From assembly GCA_049652985.1 (NCBI GenBank), contig JBASFK010000004.1, positions 251,879 to 315,878 of the forward strand: a DNA stretch of 64,000 nucleotides. The letters run 5' to 3'. The position numbers were made by a program, and so were the translations under genes. Below the pieces are notes generated by a model. The model saw nothing but the letters and a program-made list of their open reading frames with translations, was not told the DNA's origin and did no database searches. Positions 16,857 to 29,182 of this stretch are shown here, in pieces; within the stretch, counting starts at the first letter, position 1, and each line of letters opens with the position of its first letter. The DNA is from Alphaproteobacteria bacterium (GTDB taxonomy: Bacteria > Pseudomonadota > Alphaproteobacteria > Micavibrionales > Micavibrionaceae).

Positions 16857-16947
16857 TGCCGCGGCTGTATCACACAGCCTTATTTTTATAGGTTAATTCA
16901 GGCGGCGCGGCAATTGCATTTTTAAGGCCCGTATTGTAGAAGTGCTC

Positions 16948-18549
16948 ATGACAAACAAAGCCCCGCAGACAGCTCCCAAAACAACAGCCAACATCCAGCG
17001 CCACGACCGCATCCTGATCCTCGATTTCGGCTCGCAGGTCACACAGCTCATTGCCAGGCGCCTCCGCGAAAACGGGGTTTACTGCGAAATCTGGCCTTTC
17101 AACCAGGCGCCCGAGGAACGGGTAAAAGGCTTCGCGCCGAAAGGCATCATCCTCTCCGGCGGCCCGGCCAGCGTGACGAAATCCGATTCCCCCCGCGCGC
17201 CGGACTACGTATTCAATCTCGGCCTGCCGCTTTTGGGAATTTGCTACGGCCAGCAGACGATGGTCCAGCAGCTCGGCGGCAAGGTCGAAGGCTCCGACCA
17301 TCAGGAATTCGGTCGCGCCTACGTCAAGGTGCAAAAACCCTGCGCGATTTTCGAAGGCATCTGGAGCCCCGGCGCCAGCGAACAGGTCTGGATGAGCCAC
17401 GGCGACCGTGTCACGAAACTCCCCTCCGGGTTCGAGGTTGTCGGAATTTCAGAGGGCGCGCCCTTCGCCGCCGTCGCCGACGACAAGCGCCATTTCTACG
17501 GCGTGCAGTTCCACCCCGAGGTGATGCACACGCCGCACGGCACGCAGCTTCTCAAAAATTTCACGCATTTAGTGTGCGGCTGCAAGGGCGACTGGACCAT
17601 GGCGGCGTTCCGCGAAGAAGCCGTCGCGAAAATCCGCAAGCAGGTCGGCAAGGGCAAAGTGATCTGCGGCCTGTCGGGCGGCGTGGACTCGAGCGTTACC
17701 GCCGTGCTGCTGCACGAGGCGATCGGCGACCAGCTGACATGCATTTATGTCGATACCGGCCTGATGCGCGCGAATGAAAGCAAACAGGTCGTCGACATGT
17801 TCCGCGGCGCTTACAACATTCCCCTCGTCCATGAGGACGCGAGCGAGCGGTTCCTGAACGGCCTCGAGGGCATCTCCGAGCCGGAAATGAAACGCAAACT
17901 CATCGGCGCGATGTTCATCGACGTGTTCGAAAAACTCACCAAAGAAGCCGGGCAGGCGGAATTCCTCGCGCAGGGCACGCTGTACCCGGATGTGATCGAA
18001 AGCGTGTCGTTCACGGGTGGCCCGAGCGTCACGATCAAAAGCCACCACAATGTCGGCGGCCTGCCCGAGACGATGAAACTGAAACTGGTTGAGCCGCTCC
18101 GCGAACTGTTCAAGGACGAAGTGAGGGCGCTGGGCCGCGAGCTTGGCATGCCCGAGGAATTCATCAAGCGCCACCCGTTCCCCGGCCCCGGCCTCGCGAT
18201 CCGCATTCCCGGCGAAATCACGCGTGAGAAGCTCGAAATTTTGCGCAAGGCCGACACGGTCTATCTCGAGGAAATCCGCAACGCCGGTCTGTACGACGCG
18301 ATCTGGCAGGCCTTCGCCGTGCTGCTCCCGGTCAAAACCGTCGGCGTCATGGGCGATGACAGGACGTATGATTTCGTCTGCGCGCTCCGCGCCGTGACCA
18401 GCACCGACGGCATGACGGCGGATTCATACCCGTTCAGCCACGATTTCCTCTCCCGCGTCGCCACGCGCATCATCAACGAAGTGCGCGGCATCAACCGCGT
18501 CGTCTATGACGTGACGTCCAAGCCCCCGGGGACGATTGAGTGGGAATAG
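16948..18549 (+). CDS. guaA: GMP synthase (glutamine-hydrolysing)
   Basis: GATase domain (ILILDFGSQ...GICYG) plus ATP-PPase SGGVDSSV. Ends ...[11 protein letters not shown]. Start at ATG 16948. Confidence 0.97.
18530..18549 (+). repeat. att core copy 1 (the functional guaA terminus, ACG ATT GAG TGG GAA TAG)
   Basis: GGACGATTGAGTGGGAATA recurs at 28113-28131 (18/19 identical). GACGATTGAGTGGGA recurs at 28551-28565 (15/15 identical). Confidence 0.85.
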
Positions 18550-18632: not shown

Positions 18633-18672
18633 CTGATATAATTCGGGCAGTTAGCTTTTGGGCCGAGTGAAC

Positions 18673-19983
18673 ATGCAGTCAAAAAAACGGATTATTGTGA
18701 ACAATCAAAGCCTCAGCATTCAAAAACCTGCCGTCAGCCGCAAGAAGCGTATGAAAAAAGACAACTCCCATCGAATTGTTGATGAGGTCGAAATATTGGA
18801 TGGCGAGGTTAAAGTAATCCGTACGACCAAAAGTGGACAATTTTGGTCCATGTCTTGTTGGCTACGTGAAGAAGGCAAGTGCTATCGGCGTTCATTAAGA
18901 ACAAGAAATCTTGACGAAGCTAAGCAGTTAGCCCGCGACCAATATATTCAAATTAAAGGCGATCTTAAATCAGGTAACAGGATTTTTACGAAGACAGCCG
19001 AAGAACTTGTTCAGGATTTTATCAACCATAAAACTGAAGAGGCAAAAGCAGGTCTTATTACTGAAGGACGTGTTCAAACCATCAGTATATCTTTAAATCG
19101 TTGGTTTTTAAAATATGTCGGTCATACAAAAAAACTCGACAAAATTACGCGACATGATTTTAAAGAATATTTTATATGGCGCAGGAAGCATGCTCCTGAT
19201 GTACGAAATTCAACGCTAACCAATGATCGTGCGCTTATCTCCTCGTTATTTAAATACGGCATTTCACATGGCTATTTAAAGTTTGAGCAGGCCCCGATCT
19301 TCCCTAAATTATCGATTAAAAAGGCTGATGTTGAACGTCGTGATGACCTTACTTTGGCAGAATGGCAACAGATGTTTCGGGCATTTCCAAGTTGGATCAA
19401 AAAATCAAAAGATGAAAAAGAGAAAGAACAGCGTCTCTTTATAAAAGATTTCTTGGTAATAGCCGCTAATACAGGCTTAAGGTTTGGCGAACTAAGAAAA
19501 TTAAAATGGAATATGATTAGAACGTATCAAGCAAAGCGCACAGGCCATCATATACACGTAGAAATTTCGGTTCCTCCCGATACAAAGACAGGGCCAAGAA
19601 CAGCAATCGGGCAAAGAGGAGATGTCTTTGACCGTATTAAAAAACTTTCAAAATTTACTAAGCCTAATGATTGGGTTTTCGTGGATAATGAAACTGGAGA
19701 TCAAATACATAAGAAGGTCTATTACAAGCAATGGCCGCTGCTTTTAAAAGAAAGCAAGCTATCGGATAGTAATAAAAATCTGACGTATTATTCCTTAAGA
19801 CACACCTACATCACATTCAGATTAATCGCTGAAACTAATATATTTTTCCTCGCTAAAAACGTAGGAACAAGTGTCCGGATGATCGAAAATCACTATGAAC
19901 ATGTGAAAACAGATGAGATGAGGCGCGAACTTACAAAATCTAAAAAACGTGATGAAGCTACAAAAATTTTGATAGGGGACTAA
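18673..19983 (+). CDS. int: Tyrosine-type site-specific integrase
   Basis: C-terminal catalytic motifs TGLRFGELRKLKW, YSLRHTYITF and MIENHYEHV. It sits next to the att site at guaA. ATG 18673 preferred over TTG 18658. Confidence 0.9.
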   Translation: MQSKKRIIVNNQSLSIQKPAVSRKKRMKKDNSHRIVDEVEILDGEVKVIRTTKSGQFWSMSCWLREEGKCYRRSLRTRNLDEAKQLARDQYIQIKGDLKSGNRIFTKTAEELVQDFINHKTEEAKAGLITEGRVQTISISLNRWFLKYVGHTKKLDKITRHDFKEYFIWRRKHAPDVRNSTLTNDRALISSLFKYGISHGYLKFEQAPIFPKLSIKKADVERRDDLTLAEWQQMFRAFPSWIKKSKDEKEKEQRLFIKDFLVIAANTGLRFGELRKLKWNMIRTYQAKRTGHHIHVEISVPPDTKTGPRTAIGQRGDVFDRIKKLSKFTKPNDWVFVDNETGDQIHKKVYYKQWPLLLKESKLSDSNKNLTYYSLRHTYITFRLIAETNIFFLAKNVGTSVRMIENHYEHVKTDEMRRELTKSKKRDEATKILIGD

Positions 19984-20008
19984 AATTTAGTTTTAGTTAT
20001 AGGATAAG

Positions 20009-21586
20009 ATGACGTTAGAAATAGTCCCACAAAATGCTCGCTTTACACCTATCAATTTATCTAATTTCATTGAGCATTTAAGAAGACATCAGCAAAAATC
20101 TATAATAAGTAGTGGTTCGTACTTATGTTGGGAAGCGTTTAGAAATCCAGAATTTAAATCTAAGTTGTCATCGCAGCTTCAGCTTATAGAATCTTATGCA
20201 CCCAAAATAATACTCCTAGCTTTAGCAACTGCAAATAATCAGAGAAATCTGACTGTAAATAATGAAGAATTCTATAATTTGTGTAGCAGTTTTCTTCATA
20301 TACGCACTCCTATTTCCGATAAACCTTTTTTGGATTTAGAAGCTAAAAAAATTACTGAAGAGTTAAATGCTGTATGCACAAAAAAGGGCAATATTCCTGT
20401 TGAAAGAATTCATGAAGAATTAATAAGAGCTAGCTGTTCGATAATGTTTATATCTCGAGGGGTCACTGCGCAGCATCGTAATTTTAAAATGAGTTTGGAG
20501 GAAATGTTTAGAGATTATCTCATTATTAAGCACATTGATTCTCAAACTTCTAATGAAGCATCTCGAATTTTAAAGAATATATTTGGTATCGATACACTAC
20601 AGATATTTCGCTCAGCTTTTGGTCTGTTTTCTGTAGCTAATGATACTAATCGAAATGGTTCTCTGAATTTCGGAACGTTAACTTGTGATGTTGCTTTAAC
20701 TGACCGTTTGAAAATAGATCTAACAACATGTCTTTCAGTGGCCACAAACACTTCCTATAAAGAAAGCGATTTGCGCGAGAACTGGCTTAATAAGGAAGTT
20801 CTTTCGGAACATGAGCTTTATCAGTCTTATGCTCCCGATCCCTTATCCTATAATCCTATCATTCACAGAGATAGATCAGTATTAGAGAATCAATTCTTAA
20901 TTCCATCGCCTGGCTTATTCTTTCGAGGCTTTCGGCAATCCCTATTCTCCATTCTTTATCAAAATGCTTCGAATAAAGGAGATATGGGAAGACAAATAGG
21001 CAATGCAATAGAAACTCACATTGAAGTAGCCTTAAAAAGCATTTTTTCGAAAGATCGAGTAACAAAAATTCAAAGCGATGAAAGACAAGCAGATTTTTTA
21101 ATTCAGCTCGAAAAAATCGATCTAATAATCGAGATCAAATCAATGATTGGAGGTATTTCAGATAAATTTGTTATGCGACCAGATCACACTGCTAAAATGT
21201 GGAATCGTCTTTATAGTGCATGTACACAATGTGCATCTTCATTAAAAACGGACGGCACAAAAAATAAACCAATCATTCCTATTATTTTAATCGCAGACCA
21301 TATCACAGCGGAACATTTACCCTTTGATCATTATGCATTCCATGCGGGCCTATATAAAGACTCAGGCATCAATGCGATTGAATATATTTCATGGAATTCT
21401 TTAGAGGATATTCTTTCGAAAACATCTATTGCCGAATTTGAAAAGGCATTATTGAAAAAATGGAAGGATCCAGCAAGAGTTACAGTCGGTACTTCAATGG
21501 CTTTAGACTTAAACAGAGATACACCTGCACATGAATATCAATATCTAAAAGATGCAGAAGTAGAAATTTTTATGAGAGAAATATAA
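20009..21586 (+). CDS. Unknown N-terminal domain fused to a C-terminal PD-(D/E)xK-type nuclease motif set (putative)
   Basis: 525 aa. Ordered motifs GNAIETHIEVAL (E335), QADFLI (D362) and LIIEIKS (E375-x-K377). The first ~330 aa have no recognised motif. Confidence 0.5.
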   Translation: MTLEIVPQNARFTPINLSNFIEHLRRHQQKSIISSGSYLCWEAFRNPEFKSKLSSQLQLIESYAPKIILLALATANNQRNLTVNNEEFYNLCSSFLHIRTPISDKPFLDLEAKKITEELNAVCTKKGNIPVERIHEELIRASCSIMFISRGVTAQHRNFKMSLEEMFRDYLIIKHIDSQTSNEASRILKNIFGIDTLQIFRSAFGLFSVANDTNRNGSLNFGTLTCDVALTDRLKIDLTTCLSVATNTSYKESDLRENWLNKEVLSEHELYQSYAPDPLSYNPIIHRDRSVLENQFLIPSPGLFFRGFRQSLFSILYQNASNKGDMGRQIGNAIETHIEVALKSIFSKDRVTKIQSDERQADFLIQLEKIDLIIEIKSMIGGISDKFVMRPDHTAKMWNRLYSACTQCASSLKTDGTKNKPIIPIILIADHITAEHLPFDHYAFHAGLYKDSGINAIEYISWNSLEDILSKTSIAEFEKALLKKWKDPARVTVGTSMALDLNRDTPAHEYQYLKDAEVEIFMREI

Positions 21587-22293
21587 TGTTTAATAAAGCA
21601 GATATTGATGCAGCAGAATTAGATTGGAAAGACGCAGACGAATTTAACGAATCGTTATCAAAGTTAAAAAAAGGCCAAGTTAAGTTCATAAAGGTTGAAG
21701 GTGATCTTGCTCGATCAAAACTCGCTTGGAAAATAGCAACTTATTCTGAGGCTATACGCTATCGATTAATAGAGGTAACGGAGGCATGTATTGATGAATG
21801 GCAAAAAGAACGTTTTGTCGCATGTTTTATCATGGCGAGAGTAATAATAGAAACTGTTGCGGCATTATATGAATTGGAACATCAATTACAAAAACTATTA
21901 GCTAATAAAGATCTGGATGCGATCGACGCAATGATAATGAAGAGAACATTCGGCACAAGACTAGCTGACTTGTTCGGCGGTAAAAAAGCTTATGAAGCTG
22001 TAAGTGTTCTCACTACTATTGATAAATTAGATAAATTTCTTAAAGGGCATGTAAGAGAAGCTTATGATCGTCTCTCTGAATATACGCACACAAATTATAT
22101 GGGTGTTTGTAGTTCGTACGAAAAAATTGATTACAAATACGGAGACGTGACGTATGGTAATCAGAATACTAAGCACAATGTGTTCATGCGACTGCAGGGT
22201 GAGTTTGGTCTTCTAGAGCTGGCTAATATCACATTTGAGAAAATTAAGTCGCATGTTAAGGCAACTGCTGATCTTCAGCATGAACTAGATTAG
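21586..22293 (+). CDS. Hypothetical helical protein with an Rx5H (HEPN-like) motif, translationally coupled to the upstream gene
   Basis: The ATG overlaps the upstream stop (ATAATG). AYDRLSEYTH contains R162-x5-H168. The HEPN assignment is tentative. Confidence 0.35.
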   Translation: MFNKADIDAAELDWKDADEFNESLSKLKKGQVKFIKVEGDLARSKLAWKIATYSEAIRYRLIEVTEACIDEWQKERFVACFIMARVIIETVAALYELEHQLQKLLANKDLDAIDAMIMKRTFGTRLADLFGGKKAYEAVSVLTTIDKLDKFLKGHVREAYDRLSEYTHTNYMGVCSSYEKIDYKYGDVTYGNQNTKHNVFMRLQGEFGLLELANITFEKIKSHVKATADLQHELD

Positions 22294-22493
22294 ATAATCA
22301 AATCTTTCAATTCACAATCTAAAGCATCTGCAATCGAAACTAACGACTTGATTGTGACATTCATTTTTCCATTTTCAATTTCCGAGAGATAGCTTCGATC
22401 AATCTGCGCTAACCCACATAAGTCTTCTTGCGTAAGATTCTGCTTCTTTCGCAGTTTTACGATATTTTTCCCTATGATCTTTAGCTCTTTCAT
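22290..22493 (-). CDS. XRE-family (Cro/CI-type) helix-turn-helix regulator
   Basis: 67 aa. LRKKQNLTQEDLCGLAQIDRSYLSEIENGKMNVTIKSLVSIADAL is a canonical HTH_XRE sequence. Confidence 0.85.
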   Translation of the reverse strand: MKELKIIGKNIVKLRKKQNLTQEDLCGLAQIDRSYLSEIENGKMNVTIKSLVSIADALDCELKDLII

Positions 22494-23623: not shown

Positions 23624-24100
23624 TTACTTGGAACAAAATTCACGGCTAATGATAAAAGCTCGATAATTTTGATCTTTATATTGTTCCTTTAAACAGTAAT
23701 CCAAACGTCCAGTAAAAGGTTGAATATCGATTGAACCACTTTTAACCAGCGTCTCCCATACATCAGGCGCATGCTGTTCGAAGCGTTCGATATGTTCTCG
23801 ATTAACCCTTGTTAATAGATGATAGTGAAGGTTCGACTGGATATGCTCAGGGAACGCGATGAAAAACGTTCGTTCTTCAGGTGGTTTTTTATACCAATTC
23901 GTCCCTAAAATTCTTCGGTCGATATTTGCATGAAATTTTTTAAGTTTGTCGCGGGCAGAATCCAATGTTTCGGGTCTATTAAAAACGAGCGTCATGAAAT
24001 GGGTAAAGTTTTGGCTGTCTAGCCAAACTTTGAATTTGGGGAGTAATTTTGATGGAAATATAGTGGTGGTGGTCATCAACCTATTTATGCATTGAGCCAC
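23624..24100 (-). CDS. Small rolling-circle Rep-like (HUH) protein, possibly YagK/YfjJ / inovirus gpII-like (tentative)
   Basis: 158 aa with three ordered motifs resembling RCR Rep motifs: FMTLVF (motif 1), LHYHLLT (HUH) and LDYCLKE (uxxYuxK). Confidence 0.45.
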   Translation of the reverse strand: MAQCINRLMTTTTIFPSKLLPKFKVWLDSQNFTHFMTLVFNRPETLDSARDKLKKFHANIDRRILGTNWYKKPPEERTFFIAFPEHIQSNLHYHLLTRVNREHIERFEQHAPDVWETLVKSGSIDIQPFTGRLDYCLKEQYKDQNYRAFIISREFCSK

Positions 24101-25018: not shown

Positions 25019-25131
25019 GGTATATAACCCATTGATTTATAATATAATTTTAGCTCATGTGTTGCGTTGACCTTATCCCAATACATTAGGAAATTGCCTG
25101 TACTTAACGTTTTCTAATGAAAGGACAGACA

Positions 25132-25719
25132 ATGGGACTAGGTAAGCAGGCCAAGATCTTATCGAGGCATCAGCAAGCGGCTTTAATTTCGTTTTTAACG
25201 ACCACTAGACACGCCAAACGAAACCAAGTGATTTTCCTGTTATCGATTAGAGCCGGTCTTAGAGCGAAAGAAATCGCGTTTATCACCTGGTCTATGGTTT
25301 CAGATGCCGAAGGCAATATATCCGATGTTATTAATCTTCGAAATTCCGCGTCTAAAGGTAATTCTGGCGGCATAATCTGGATGAACAGCGATTTAAGGCA
25401 GGCTCTAATTGAATACCGGGCTACTCAAAACTTAATGAGTGGTAATGACAGGATCATTAAAACAGAACGCGGTGAAAACACATCAGCCCAAGTTATCGTG
25501 AATATGTTCAAGGGTTGGTACAAGAAACTGGGTTTCGAGGGGTGTTCATCACACAGCGGCCGTCGAACCTTCATTACAAACGCAGCTCGTAAAATATCGA
25601 CGGTCGGTGGTTCGATTCGAGATGTTCAAGTCCTAGCCAGACATTCATCCCTTCAAATGACCCAGAGATATATTGAATGTGATGTCGAAGCACAGAAAAA
25701 AGTGGTTCAGCTAATATAG
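25132..25719 (+). CDS. Small tyrosine recombinase (catalytic domain only)
   Basis: RAGLRAKEI, SSHSGRRTFIT, LARHSS and TQRYIE supply the R..HxxR..H..Y residues. ATG 25132 has an AAGGA RBS; an alternative ATG is at 25117. Confidence 0.85.
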   Translation: MGLGKQAKILSRHQQAALISFLTTTRHAKRNQVIFLLSIRAGLRAKEIAFITWSMVSDAEGNISDVINLRNSASKGNSGGIIWMNSDLRQALIEYRATQNLMSGNDRIIKTERGENTSAQVIVNMFKGWYKKLGFEGCSSHSGRRTFITNAARKISTVGGSIRDVQVLARHSSLQMTQRYIECDVEAQKKVVQLI

Positions 25720-26413: not shown

Positions 26414-27229
26414 ATGAATTCAAAAGTTGATTTTAAAGCTCGCGCAAAGCAGCATCTTGCTGCTGCAAAAGAAGAATTATCGTCAGGAGATGAAAGACGT
26501 TTAAAATATGCGGCTCTTGAAATTCGTATGGCAATGGAAGCCGTAACTTACGAACGTGCTCAGGCATATATCAAGGATATCCCGCCAGAAGTTTATGAAA
26601 CTTGGCAACCTAAAAAACTGATGTTGTTTCTACTTGAGGCCGATCCTTATGCAGACCAATCTTCAACACTTTCAGTAGGAATAGAAAAAGAATATGGAGT
26701 CGAAGCCAAGGAAATGAAAACCCTTGGCACTGAGCATATTTTGTCGTTGGCAGAAATAAAAAAGAATTATGATGCGATTGGTAGCTATCTTCATATGCCA
26801 ACGTATAAACAACTTCAGGAGGCTAAACAAAACCTTTCAAGTCTCAAAGATAGATGTGAAAAAATAATTGAAAAACTAGAGAAAGTTATCAATTCCAAAA
26901 TTCATAACATAAAATTTACAGTTTTTTCCGAAGTACATTGTGTTCGATGTGAGCATCTGATTAAAAAGAATATAGCTCATCTAAAAAAGCTTGATACAAT
27001 CGAAGCCAAATGTTTGGGATGTGGTGCAACTTATTTGGTTGAGAACGCAGACAACGATCAAATTAAATGGAAACCAAAAAAATCTTTATTTAATTGCATT
27101 AACAAAGAATGTAACGAAGAAAATTCAATTTGGAACGATGAGTTAAAGCCTGGCACAATTATTCAATGTAAAGCGTGCAATGCTAATAACGAAATTGCAT
27201 TGTCTGTTGTTTTAAGAAGCACAGTATAA
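26414..27229 (+). CDS. Hypothetical protein: helical N-domain plus two C-terminal zinc-ribbon-like Cys pairs
   Basis: 271 aa. C176xxC179...C200xxC203 and C228x4C233...C252xxC255. N-domain motifs LEIRMAMEAVTYE and NYDAIGSYLH resemble those in ORF 21586..22293. Confidence 0.55.
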   Translation: MNSKVDFKARAKQHLAAAKEELSSGDERRLKYAALEIRMAMEAVTYERAQAYIKDIPPEVYETWQPKKLMLFLLEADPYADQSSTLSVGIEKEYGVEAKEMKTLGTEHILSLAEIKKNYDAIGSYLHMPTYKQLQEAKQNLSSLKDRCEKIIEKLEKVINSKIHNIKFTVFSEVHCVRCEHLIKKNIAHLKKLDTIEAKCLGCGATYLVENADNDQIKWKPKKSLFNCINKECNEENSIWNDELKPGTIIQCKACNANNEIALSVVLRSTV

Positions 27230-28053: not shown

Positions 28054-28132
28054 CTGCAAACTTACTACAAACAAAAATATTATGATTATAAATCAAATAA
28101 TTAGACGCATAAGGACTATTGAGTGGGAATAA
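28054..28132 (+). repeat. Island right arm plus att core copy 2 (ACT ATT GAG TGG GAA TAA)
   Basis: The 75-bp arm 28054-28128 is collinear with 28491-28565 (58/75 identical by hand), including a perfect 21-mer AAACTTACTACAAACAAAAAT. It ends in a copy of the guaA terminus. Confidence 0.8.
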
Positions 28133-28565
28133 ACGATGGAAATCAAAATTATTAATATAAAAACAGATGAAATAAAAGATTGGGATAGCTTCCATGCTGT
28201 ATTTCAAAAGGCATTTGGATTTCCTGATTTTTACGGACGTAATATGAATGCATGGATTGATTGTATGTCTTATCTTGATGAATCGGATAATGAGATGACC
28301 AACATAACAGTTAAATCAGGCGGCATAATTATATTGAATATAGAAAACTCTGCGGAATTCAAAAAACGCTGCGCAGAGCAATATGAAGCATTGATAGAAT
28401 GCTCTGCATTTGTAAATTATAGACGCATTGAAGCCGGGGAGACCCCCGTTCTTTCTCTAATTTTTTCTGGACATTATTAAAGCAATCCAACTGTAAACTT
28501 ACTACAAACAAAAATTTTTTGAAGTTAGATCAAATGTTTATAAGTGCAGAGACGATTGAGTGGGA
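28132..28565 (+). mobile_element. Mini-element or remnant between att copies 2 and 3, carrying only a barstar-like gene
   Basis: Bounded by copies of the guaA terminus. It shares its right arm with the large island. No recombinase of its own. Confidence 0.6.
28136..28480 (+). CDS. Barstar-family ribonuclease inhibitor (orphan immunity protein)
   Basis: FHAVFQKAFGFPDFYGRNMNAWIDCMSYL aligns with barstar [28 protein letters not shown]. Size (114 aa) is appropriate. Confidence 0.8.
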   Translation: MEIKIINIKTDEIKDWDSFHAVFQKAFGFPDFYGRNMNAWIDCMSYLDESDNEMTNITVKSGGIIILNIENSAEFKKRCAEQYEALIECSAFVNYRRIEAGETPVLSLIFSGHY

Positions 28566-28569
28566 GTGA
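28491..28569 (+). repeat. Second right arm plus att core copy 3 (ACG ATT GAG TGG GAG TGA)
   Basis: See 28054-28132. GACGATTGAGTGGGA is identical to 18531-18545, and the T-I-E-W-E-stop reading is retained. Confidence 0.8.
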
Positions 28570-28573
28570 TGAA

Positions 28574-29182
28574 ATGCAGAATGTTGATGTGAATCAAATT
28601 GCAATTTCTATTGCAGATAAAATCACATCAGAGCTGGATGTAAGAATTGCCTTAATTGGTGTTTTTGGTGTTGCTGTTGGTGCTTTAATTCCCGGAATTT
28701 TATCTCTTTTTGAGAAAAAAATTGGATACGCTAATGATTACTACAAAAGCATTGTCCAGCGCCGTATTGCTGCCTATGAAGAATTGGAAAATTTAATAAT
28801 CGCTTTGAAAACATCCGTAATCGACACAGATAATAAGCCATATCATCTATTATTCGCTCAAGAGGATGAAGGTAAGGCAGTTTATTTCAGAACTCAAAGT
28901 ATTATGCGCCAATCTCTCTGGCTTAGTAATAAGGCTTTAAGAAAATTAATATCTTTTGGTGACCGCATGTTTAATGCTGACCGGAAAGATATGGTTGCGT
29001 TTGCAAAAGAACATTACAAGGAGATTGCAGATTGGCGCCATGAGATTGAAAAAATTCTTGCCGCTGATATGTTAGAGCTTCACAACGTTAAAAAATTTCT
29101 GAAACAAAAAAATAAGGGCAATTCAAAATATCGTGCTCTTCATATAAAAAGCTCTAAACAAGAGTTAGAAAGTTTAGAATAA
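28574..29182 (+). CDS. Hypothetical membrane-anchored protein (AT-rich, beyond the last att copy)
   Basis: ATG 28574 (MQNVDVNQ...) with one TM helix (IALIGVFGVAVGALIPGILSLF). No family recognised. Confidence 0.5.
   Translation: MQNVDVNQIAISIADKITSELDVRIALIGVFGVAVGALIPGILSLFEKKIGYANDYYKSIVQRRIAAYEELENLIIALKTSVIDTDNKPYHLLFAQEDEGKAVYFRTQSIMRQSLWLSNKALRKLISFGDRMFNADRKDMVAFAKEHYKEIADWRHEIEKILAADMLELHNVKKFLKQKNKGNSKYRALHIKSSKQELESLE

Follow-up and report, generated by a model that had tools for sequence, protein, structure and literature searches.

Not a coupled DNase and RNase defence system: a predicted solitary PD-(D/E)xK nuclease gene next to a distant member of a widespread protein family in a guaA-targeting island

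Upx, reportedly described by Gao et al. in 2020, is a single-gene defence nuclease. It is a protein of 1272 aa with three domains, N-terminal, middle and C-terminal (NTD-MD-CTD; structure 9wuf) (PMC13099982). Its canonical core (residues 1121-1272, with D1161, E1176 and K1178) ends a C-terminal domain of 558 residues, and defence was lost in the E1176A mutant (PMC13099982, PMC13601566), while the cue sensed by the protein is a phage protein, the terminase or gp16 (PMC13601566). Genes of the DUF5677 family are reported to be enriched directly downstream of serine recombinases (PMC12632615). The present analysis concerns two adjacent open reading frames (ORFs), ORF1 and ORF2, in a window of 64,000 nt from a bacterium of the family Micavibrionaceae (Alphaproteobacteria; assembly GCA_049652985.1, contig JBASFK010000004.1, positions 251,879 to 315,878), the term window being used for this whole stretch. 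A first-pass annotation had proposed that the pair formed a new two-gene defence system, with a DNase and an RNase as partners. This proposal is not supported: ORF1 is a solitary PD-(D/E)xK nuclease as predicted from its family and model, and ORF2 is a distant member of a widespread, uncharacterised family.

Both ORFs lie where that annotation had placed them, on the same strand, with the stop codon of ORF1 and the start codon of ORF2 sharing the bases ATAATG (21583-21588), and they are indeed the first genes behind a tyrosine integrase in an AT-rich island, as deduced from the Pfam Phage_integrase match and the GC profile. The main features of the pair are as follows.

20009..21586, + strand: ORF1, 525 aa, with a helical N-terminal domain (residues ~1-320), a PD-(D/E)xK core and C-terminal helices
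20975..21418, + strand: predicted PD-(D/E)xK core of ORF1, residues ~323-470, delimited by conservation and by the secondary structure of the model
21586..22293, + strand: ORF2, 235 aa, all-helical, DUF5677-like, stand-alone

A reciprocal test with hidden Markov models (HMMs) detected ORF2-family ORFs in none of the 14 loci bearing ORF1 (0/14) and ORF1-family ORFs in none of the 64 ORF2-family loci (0/64). The first-pass annotation had named the co-occurrence of homologues as a check of its coupled system, and homologues of the two genes were never found together elsewhere, with ORF2 persisting alone. A hand-built degenerate DNA signature pattern retrieved 60 loci from the genome collection, 58 of them with true ORF2-family members from many phyla. 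The 97 nearest neighbours of these 58 genes matched 101 Pfam families, each of them present in three neighbours at most.

The four close ORF2 homologues from loci L009, L011, L012 and L014 were all devoid of ORF1. In L009, a syntenic metagenome-assembled genome of the Alphaproteobacteria with ~70-80% nucleotide identity to the window, the ORF2 homologue is a lone gene of 36% GC located 19 nt past guaA, the gene at which the island of the window is inserted. The homologue begins 40 nt past guaA in L014 and 5 nt past an internally deleted copy of the same integrase in L011, and in L012 it is preceded only by short ORFs with no Pfam match on record. In a tblastx comparison, L011 and the window were collinear from the left edge of the island through the integrase and ORF2 into a convergent helix-turn-helix (HTH) gene, and L011 differed by the internal deletion of its integrase and by the lack of positions 19984-21585, which correspond to ORF1 and a 25-nt leader. 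The match between window positions 21586-22371 and L011 extends beyond ORF2, and the 3' end of the HTH gene is also found there. The features involved in this comparison are the following.

18658..19983, + strand: tyrosine integrase, 441 aa (Pfam Phage_integrase, E = 4.7e-9), with a homologue carrying an internal deletion directly 5' of the L011 ORF2 homologue
19984..21585, + strand: segment of 1.6 kb consisting of the 25-nt leader and ORF1, missing from the otherwise collinear L011 and read as an added single-gene cassette
22290..22493, - strand: XRE/Cro-type HTH gene, 67 aa (Pfam HTH_3, E = 6.7e-15), convergent with ORF2 and overlapping its stop by 4 nt

Since the overlap of the two ORFs falls at the exact edge of the segment missing in related loci, it most likely results from gene placement and not from a conserved operon. 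Moreover, ORF2 homologues lacking ORF1 in three related loci showed ratios of non-synonymous to synonymous substitution rates (dN/dS) of 0.08-0.15, with dS near saturation, and they therefore remain functional without ORF1. The pairing of ORF1 and ORF2 is specific to this window and is not a two-component DNase and RNase system, because the families do not co-occur, R162 of ORF2 is not conserved (see below) and the overlap marks the boundary of a cassette. A stop/start overlap beside an integrase is insufficient to call a multi-gene defence system when, as in this case, it is such a boundary. The promoter and terminator scan gave results at chance level, and no terminator was detected among the integrase, ORF1 and ORF2.

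Some additional observations were made on the loci without ORF1. In L011 (100-1490), the in-frame deletion of the integrase homologue removes residues 131-337 of the window protein, and the adjoining ORF2 homologue is intact; the locus looks like a decaying island that has retained ORF2. No att-type repeats were found around the lone ORF2 homologue of L009, and a candidate target duplication at the edges of the segment missing from this locus (AAAAATAAC / GAAATATAA) was discarded, the similarity being too weak. Between this lone gene and the core genome (L009 10660-11100), GC-rich inverted-repeat elements resembling repetitive extragenic palindromic (REP) sequences or miniature inverted-repeat transposable elements (MITEs) were observed, together with three tandem copies of CCCGCCTAAAT.

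Conserved catalytic residues, a confident model with a canonical core and structural similarity to Upx, Nt.BspD6I and Hjc make it very probable that ORF1 is a PD-(D/E)xK nuclease, whose large N-terminal domain falls outside known families. The catalytic codons were confirmed at the positions claimed for them, i.e. E335 at 21011-21013, D362 at 21092-21094, E375 at 21131-21133 and K377 at 21137-21139, and in an alignment of 13 family sequences these four residues were nearly invariant, the exception being a truncated member, while H337 was invariant. The AlphaFold model (predicted local distance difference test score, pLDDT, 86.3; predicted template modelling score, pTM, 0.88) showed a core in the order alpha-beta-beta-beta-alpha-beta (residues 323-428), with helices at 323-346 (containing E335 and H337) and 391-415 (containing Q407), and strands at 351-353, 363-366 (just after D362), 371-377 (with E375 and K377) and 422-428. 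About 320 mostly helical residues precede this core in the model, and they matched no known family in profile scans, in agreement with the absence of a recognised motif reported for this region in the first-pass annotation.

Among PDB structures, the top Foldseek match of ORF1 was Upx (9wuf; E = 1.7e-4, probability 1.00, 508 aligned columns). It was accompanied by the FokI-like nickase Nt.BspD6I (530-568 columns, E = 1e-2 to 4e-2, probability 0.54-0.69, template modelling (TM) scores ~0.2), the R.BspD6I small subunit (probability 0.97), Hjc resolvases (probability 0.92-0.94), Bse634I, HincII and arenavirus endonucleases. The matches other than Upx are known PD-(D/E)xK enzymes. The low global TM-scores are attributed to the multi-domain nature of ORF1. 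Conserved residues, core topology and structural matches thus agree on the nuclease assignment, and no curated profile was matched: profile searches with ORF1 and its family gave no Pfam or NCBIfam match and nothing meaningful among PDB sequences, and PADLOC models searched at E <= 1 with ORF1 and all 13 relatives returned weak PtuB and REase_II matches and nothing else, so that Upx was not matched either. The REase_II match came from one family member (E = 0.014). Residues 391-471 of ORF1 gave weak PtuB and HNH matches in PHROGs and PADLOC scans, probably by chance. As modelled, the protein is laid out overall like a type IIS enzyme or the C-terminal portion of Upx, which is a resemblance and not a membership.

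The ORF1 family is rare, with 13 clusters among 5.8 billion proteins, to which a profile search added only four fragments (17 in total). A distant relative, 23% identical, was located on a plasmid of the cyanobacterium Calothrix, and no relative was detected in a scan of viral contigs. Nine genomic contexts of ORF1 homologues were inspected, and none contained an ORF2 relative (0/9); the next called downstream gene was on the opposite strand in seven, and on the same strand at more than 600 nt in the other two. The neighbours varied among loci: ParE, PIN, MazE and Fic in a Nitrospira chromosome; an integrase, a YhcG-like nuclease and a PIN gene in L003; a nearby FitA-PIN pair in another locus; AbiEi/AbiEii, Fic and DUF4917 in a further one; a gene with a faint Mrr_cat match in one locus and genes of unknown kind in another; and, on the Calothrix plasmid, a type III res subunit, AAA ATPases and a vWA protein. 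In L006 (3745-7481), and also in L007 and L008, the stop of a 718-aa DUF3363 relaxase-like gene lies within a 4-nt overlap with the ORF1 homologue, and the surrounding conjugative element bears type IV secretion genes along with TraG/VirD4-like, VirB11-like, ParA and Toprim genes. The defence or mobile setting suggested for ORF1 in the first-pass annotation was therefore borne out by its relatives, found in mobile-element, toxin-antitoxin and defence-type neighbourhoods, and ORF1 itself, in all likelihood, encodes a solitary nuclease that belongs to mobile-element or defence cargo.

The family of ORF2 is far larger. Only five close homologues were found, but an exhaustive profile search retrieved 1343 representative proteins (50%-identity clusters) at E <= 1e-3, of which 747 reached E <= 1e-10; most of them are stand-alone and 230-250 aa long. 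The match of ORF2 itself to Pfam DUF5677 (PF18928) was below threshold (E = 0.051; 14.1 bits vs. a cut-off of 27.1 bits), and 18 of 80 relatives matched this family at E <= 0.01 (best E = 1.5e-5). Given that ORF2 and most of its relatives fall below the DUF5677 threshold, the family would be placed, on sequence grounds, as a sister group of DUF5677 and not as a clear member of it. Two other island proteins (26414-27229 and 28544-29182) were evaluated as ORF2 paralogues and rejected (profile comparison probability of 0.2%).

The first-pass annotation had seen a possible HEPN RNase in ORF2 on account of an R162-x5-H168 motif. The motif is indeed present (in AYDRLSEYTH), and its histidine is conserved; its arginine is not. 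In an alignment of 80 relatives, R60, R85, E89, N170 and G173 were invariant, Y160 and H168 were kept in 79/80 sequences and S164, E165 and P169 in at least 74/80, while position 162 was Arg in only 19/80, with F, L and I being common. Furthermore, shuffling ORF2 with its composition preserved produced a bare Rx4-6H in 54% of cases, and three such motifs are present in ORF1. Pfam searches with ORF2 and the 80 relatives gave only DUF5677 and scattered single families, and no family of the HEPN clan; PADLOC gave no match for ORF2 or its family, PHROGs gave nothing significant, the family profile found none among PDB sequences (AbiV included), and NCBIfam yielded only scattered single-member matches (E >= 1e-3). 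The model of ORF2, built from an alignment of five sequences, was all-helical (pLDDT 75), and Foldseek searches with it against the PDB and a viral structure library gave nothing significant (best PDB E = 0.27). The weak matches obtained could not be told apart from generic helical bundles, and comprised 2q00 (TM 0.61 on the target, probability 0.66), which we take to be a HEPN-domain protein, and the AbiV structure 9bj5 (probability 0.08). With R162 unconserved and neither a profile match nor a significant fold match, the HEPN reading of ORF2 was not supported. The conserved polar residues hint at a pocket with an enzymatic or a ligand-binding role.

Taken together, it is fairly probable that ORF1 and ORF2 are independent single-gene cargo modules lying side by side in a guaA-targeting island, ORF1 being a solitary nuclease and ORF2 a DUF5677-like protein. 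The integrase, ORF2 and the convergent HTH gene would form the shared backbone of the island lineage, and ORF1 would be an extra cassette of 1.6 kb between integrase and ORF2, whose placement would have created the ATAATG overlap. ORF1 may act alone as a Mg2+-dependent DNA nuclease, with an N-terminal domain that would either recognise the target or restrain the nuclease until a foreign cue appears, as the layouts of Upx and of FokI/BspD6I-type enzymes lead us to presume, and its neighbourhoods are consistent with a service to the mobile element or to the host, in defence or in competition between elements. ORF2 would work without ORF1, and by the motif criterion it would not be a HEPN RNase.

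Several points weigh against this explanation. ORF1 could have been either inserted here or lost elsewhere, the direction not being proven, and the overlapping genes could be co-transcribed in this window and may thus have acquired a functional interaction locally. One homologue, in L004, is located among housekeeping genes. Because no PADLOC, Pfam or NCBIfam match was found for the ORF1 family, a defence role of ORF1 rests on its neighbourhoods and its fold likeness; the sequence identity between ORF1 and Upx was 9% and their global TM-score a low 0.30, and a label such as 'Upx C-terminal-domain-like' is one that we infer, the aligned region of Upx not being reported. As regards ORF2, the single DUF5677 gene assayed in Enterococcus did not figure among those reported as phage-protective (PMC12632615).

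The alternatives were weighed against the same set of evidence. That ORF1 as a DNase and ORF2 as a HEPN RNase make up one translationally coupled defence or abortive-infection system appears highly improbable: the ATAATG overlap on a shared strand, the island position just past the integrase, the lack of a terminator between the genes and the conserved polar residues of ORF2, including H168, are what would be expected from it, but it does not agree with the absence of co-occurrence outside the window, with the purifying selection on ORF2 homologues that lack ORF1, with a collinear L011 that lacks exactly the ORF1 segment, or with the low conservation of R162 (Arg in 19/80), the frequency of the motif in shuffles (54%) and the lack of a HEPN profile or fold match. 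ORF2 might instead be a divergent stand-alone RNase toxin of HEPN type, AbiV-like, with R60 or R85, on a different helix, supplying the catalytic arginine. The helical bundle, in which R60, R85 and E89 are invariant and H168 nearly so, the weak structural likeness to 2q00 (TM 0.61 on the target) and AbiV 9bj5, and the enrichment of DUF5677 genes beside recombinases (PMC12632615) fit this idea, which is nevertheless improbable considering that no fold or profile match was significant, that the contiguous motif is not conserved and that the single DUF5677 gene tested was not reported as protective (PMC12632615).

For ORF1, two other functions were considered. It may be a solitary restriction endonuclease with the type IIS layout of FokI/BspD6I, its helical N-terminal domain directly reading DNA sequence or modification and not sensing a phage protein, and it would then be of type IV, modification-dependent, because it has no methyltransferase partner. 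The Nt.BspD6I alignments over 530-568 columns, the weak REase_II match of one family member (E = 0.014 in PADLOC) and the lack of a methyltransferase beside ORF1 in the window or in homologue loci, where a single methyltransferase was encountered, in L004, at a distance of 8 kb and as the partner of a NotI gene, are in favour of such an enzyme; it was judged rather unlikely, given the modest BspD6I scores (probability 0.54-0.69, TM ~0.2), the absence of a winged-helix or any other DNA-reading domain in profile searches, and a best match to Upx, a nuclease that senses protein. It is also unlikely, and more so, that ORF1 serves the mobile element, for instance by processing DNA during conjugation, in entry exclusion or by competing against rival elements, and not in anti-phage defence. 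Three contigs in which the homologue overlaps the stop of the DUF3363 relaxase-like gene in a type IV secretion element, and the integrase islands of the window and of L003, point in that direction, but most homologues are away from a relaxase or integrase and their partners vary by locus.

Under the preferred reading of two independent cargo modules, the ORF1 family represents rare, uncatalogued, solitary PD-(D/E)xK nucleases outside current profile libraries, whose fold and neighbourhoods recall single-gene defence of the Upx type; if active, ORF1 would be a further effector, small and simple to clone, and its N-terminal domain would be new. A further, tentative possibility is that ORF1 founds a new and very rare single-gene system against phages or plasmids, as a compact nuclease of Upx-like layout, its helical domain of ~320 residues then representing a new module for sensing or for reading DNA. 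More remote is that ORF1 and the DUF5677-like ORF2 beside it are a functional pair newly assembled in the island. The ORF2 family, for its part, comprises over 1300 clusters, shows sharp conservation of a polar pocket predicted from the alignment and recurs beside recombinases, and is a reasonable target for structural and biochemical work independently of ORF1.

The remaining features concern the borders of the island, whose GC content (0.33-0.40, about 0.35) departs from that of the flanks (~0.55) in the composition of the window.

16942..18549, + strand: guaA (GMP synthase), with its last 19 nt serving as the island attachment site
18530..18548, + strand: attL-type repeat GGACGATTGAGTGGGAATA at the 3' end of guaA, detected as direct-repeat family D2 and by pattern search
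28113..28131, + strand: attR-type repeat, copy 1, matching the guaA end at 18/19 bases
28550..28568, + strand: attR-type repeat, copy 2, matching the guaA end at 16/19 bases, within a 75-nt tandem duplication

The protein encoded by guaA is 84.5% identical to that of the L009 GMP synthase gene, itself bearing the Pfam domains GATase and GMP_synt_C. Three features identify the island as an integrase-mediated insertion into the guaA 3' end: the integrase lies beside guaA, the 3' end of this gene is directly repeated at the two borders, and the composition is atypical. A second attR-type remnant is also present. No tRNA gene was found close to this site in a scan of the window. Both attR-type copies (28054-28568) are part of the 75-nt tandem duplication, whose spacing is 437 nt, and AT-rich DNA continues up to ~29182; this suggests successive or tandem insertions of islands at guaA.

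Other genes were recorded in the region of the island. A second tyrosine-recombinase gene (25117-25719, + strand, 200 aa) encodes the catalytic domain only (Pfam E = 2e-16). A Barstar-family gene, i.e. a barnase inhibitor (28136-28480, + strand; Pfam E = 5e-15), starts 5 nt past the first attR copy and is an orphan, with no barnase-like partner seen adjoining it. An ORF of 158 aa (23624-24100, - strand) showed a weak, sub-threshold match to the REP_ORF2-G2P replication-protein family (E = 1e-3), and may be the leftover of a small replicon. Profile scans of the remaining island genes revealed no recognised defence system.

Compared with the closest described systems, ORF1 shares with Upx the single-gene organisation, a large non-catalytic helical region and a C-terminal PD-(D/E)xK core with D...ExK, and differs in its length (525 vs. 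1272 aa), which leaves room for only part of the NTD-MD-CTD layout, and in the lack of an Upx profile match. With the FokI-like type IIS enzymes, and Nt.BspD6I/R.BspD6I in particular, it has in common a helical N-terminal region and a C-terminal PD-(D/E)xK cleavage domain, aligned over the full length, whereas the scores are weak (E ~1e-2, TM ~0.2) and ORF1 has neither a methyltransferase, nor a small-subunit partner, nor a recognisable DNA-recognition domain. The likeness to Shedu (SduA, DUF4263) raised in the first-pass annotation did not hold beyond the general plan of a variable N-terminus and a C-terminal PD-(D/E)xK nuclease encoded by one gene, since no DUF4263/SduA match was obtained for ORF1 or its relatives in Pfam or PADLOC. 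ORF2 is similar to DUF5677 (PF18928) proteins in being stand-alone and associated with recombinase genes, and differs in that it falls, with most of its relatives, below the threshold of that family. Finally, integrative islands are known to target the 3' end of guaA, GIsul2 being an example, and the island described here shares with them a tyrosine integrase beside guaA and border repeats of the guaA 3' end, while its cargo is unrelated, its attR-type repeat is present in two copies and it carries a further recombinase gene, which is truncated.

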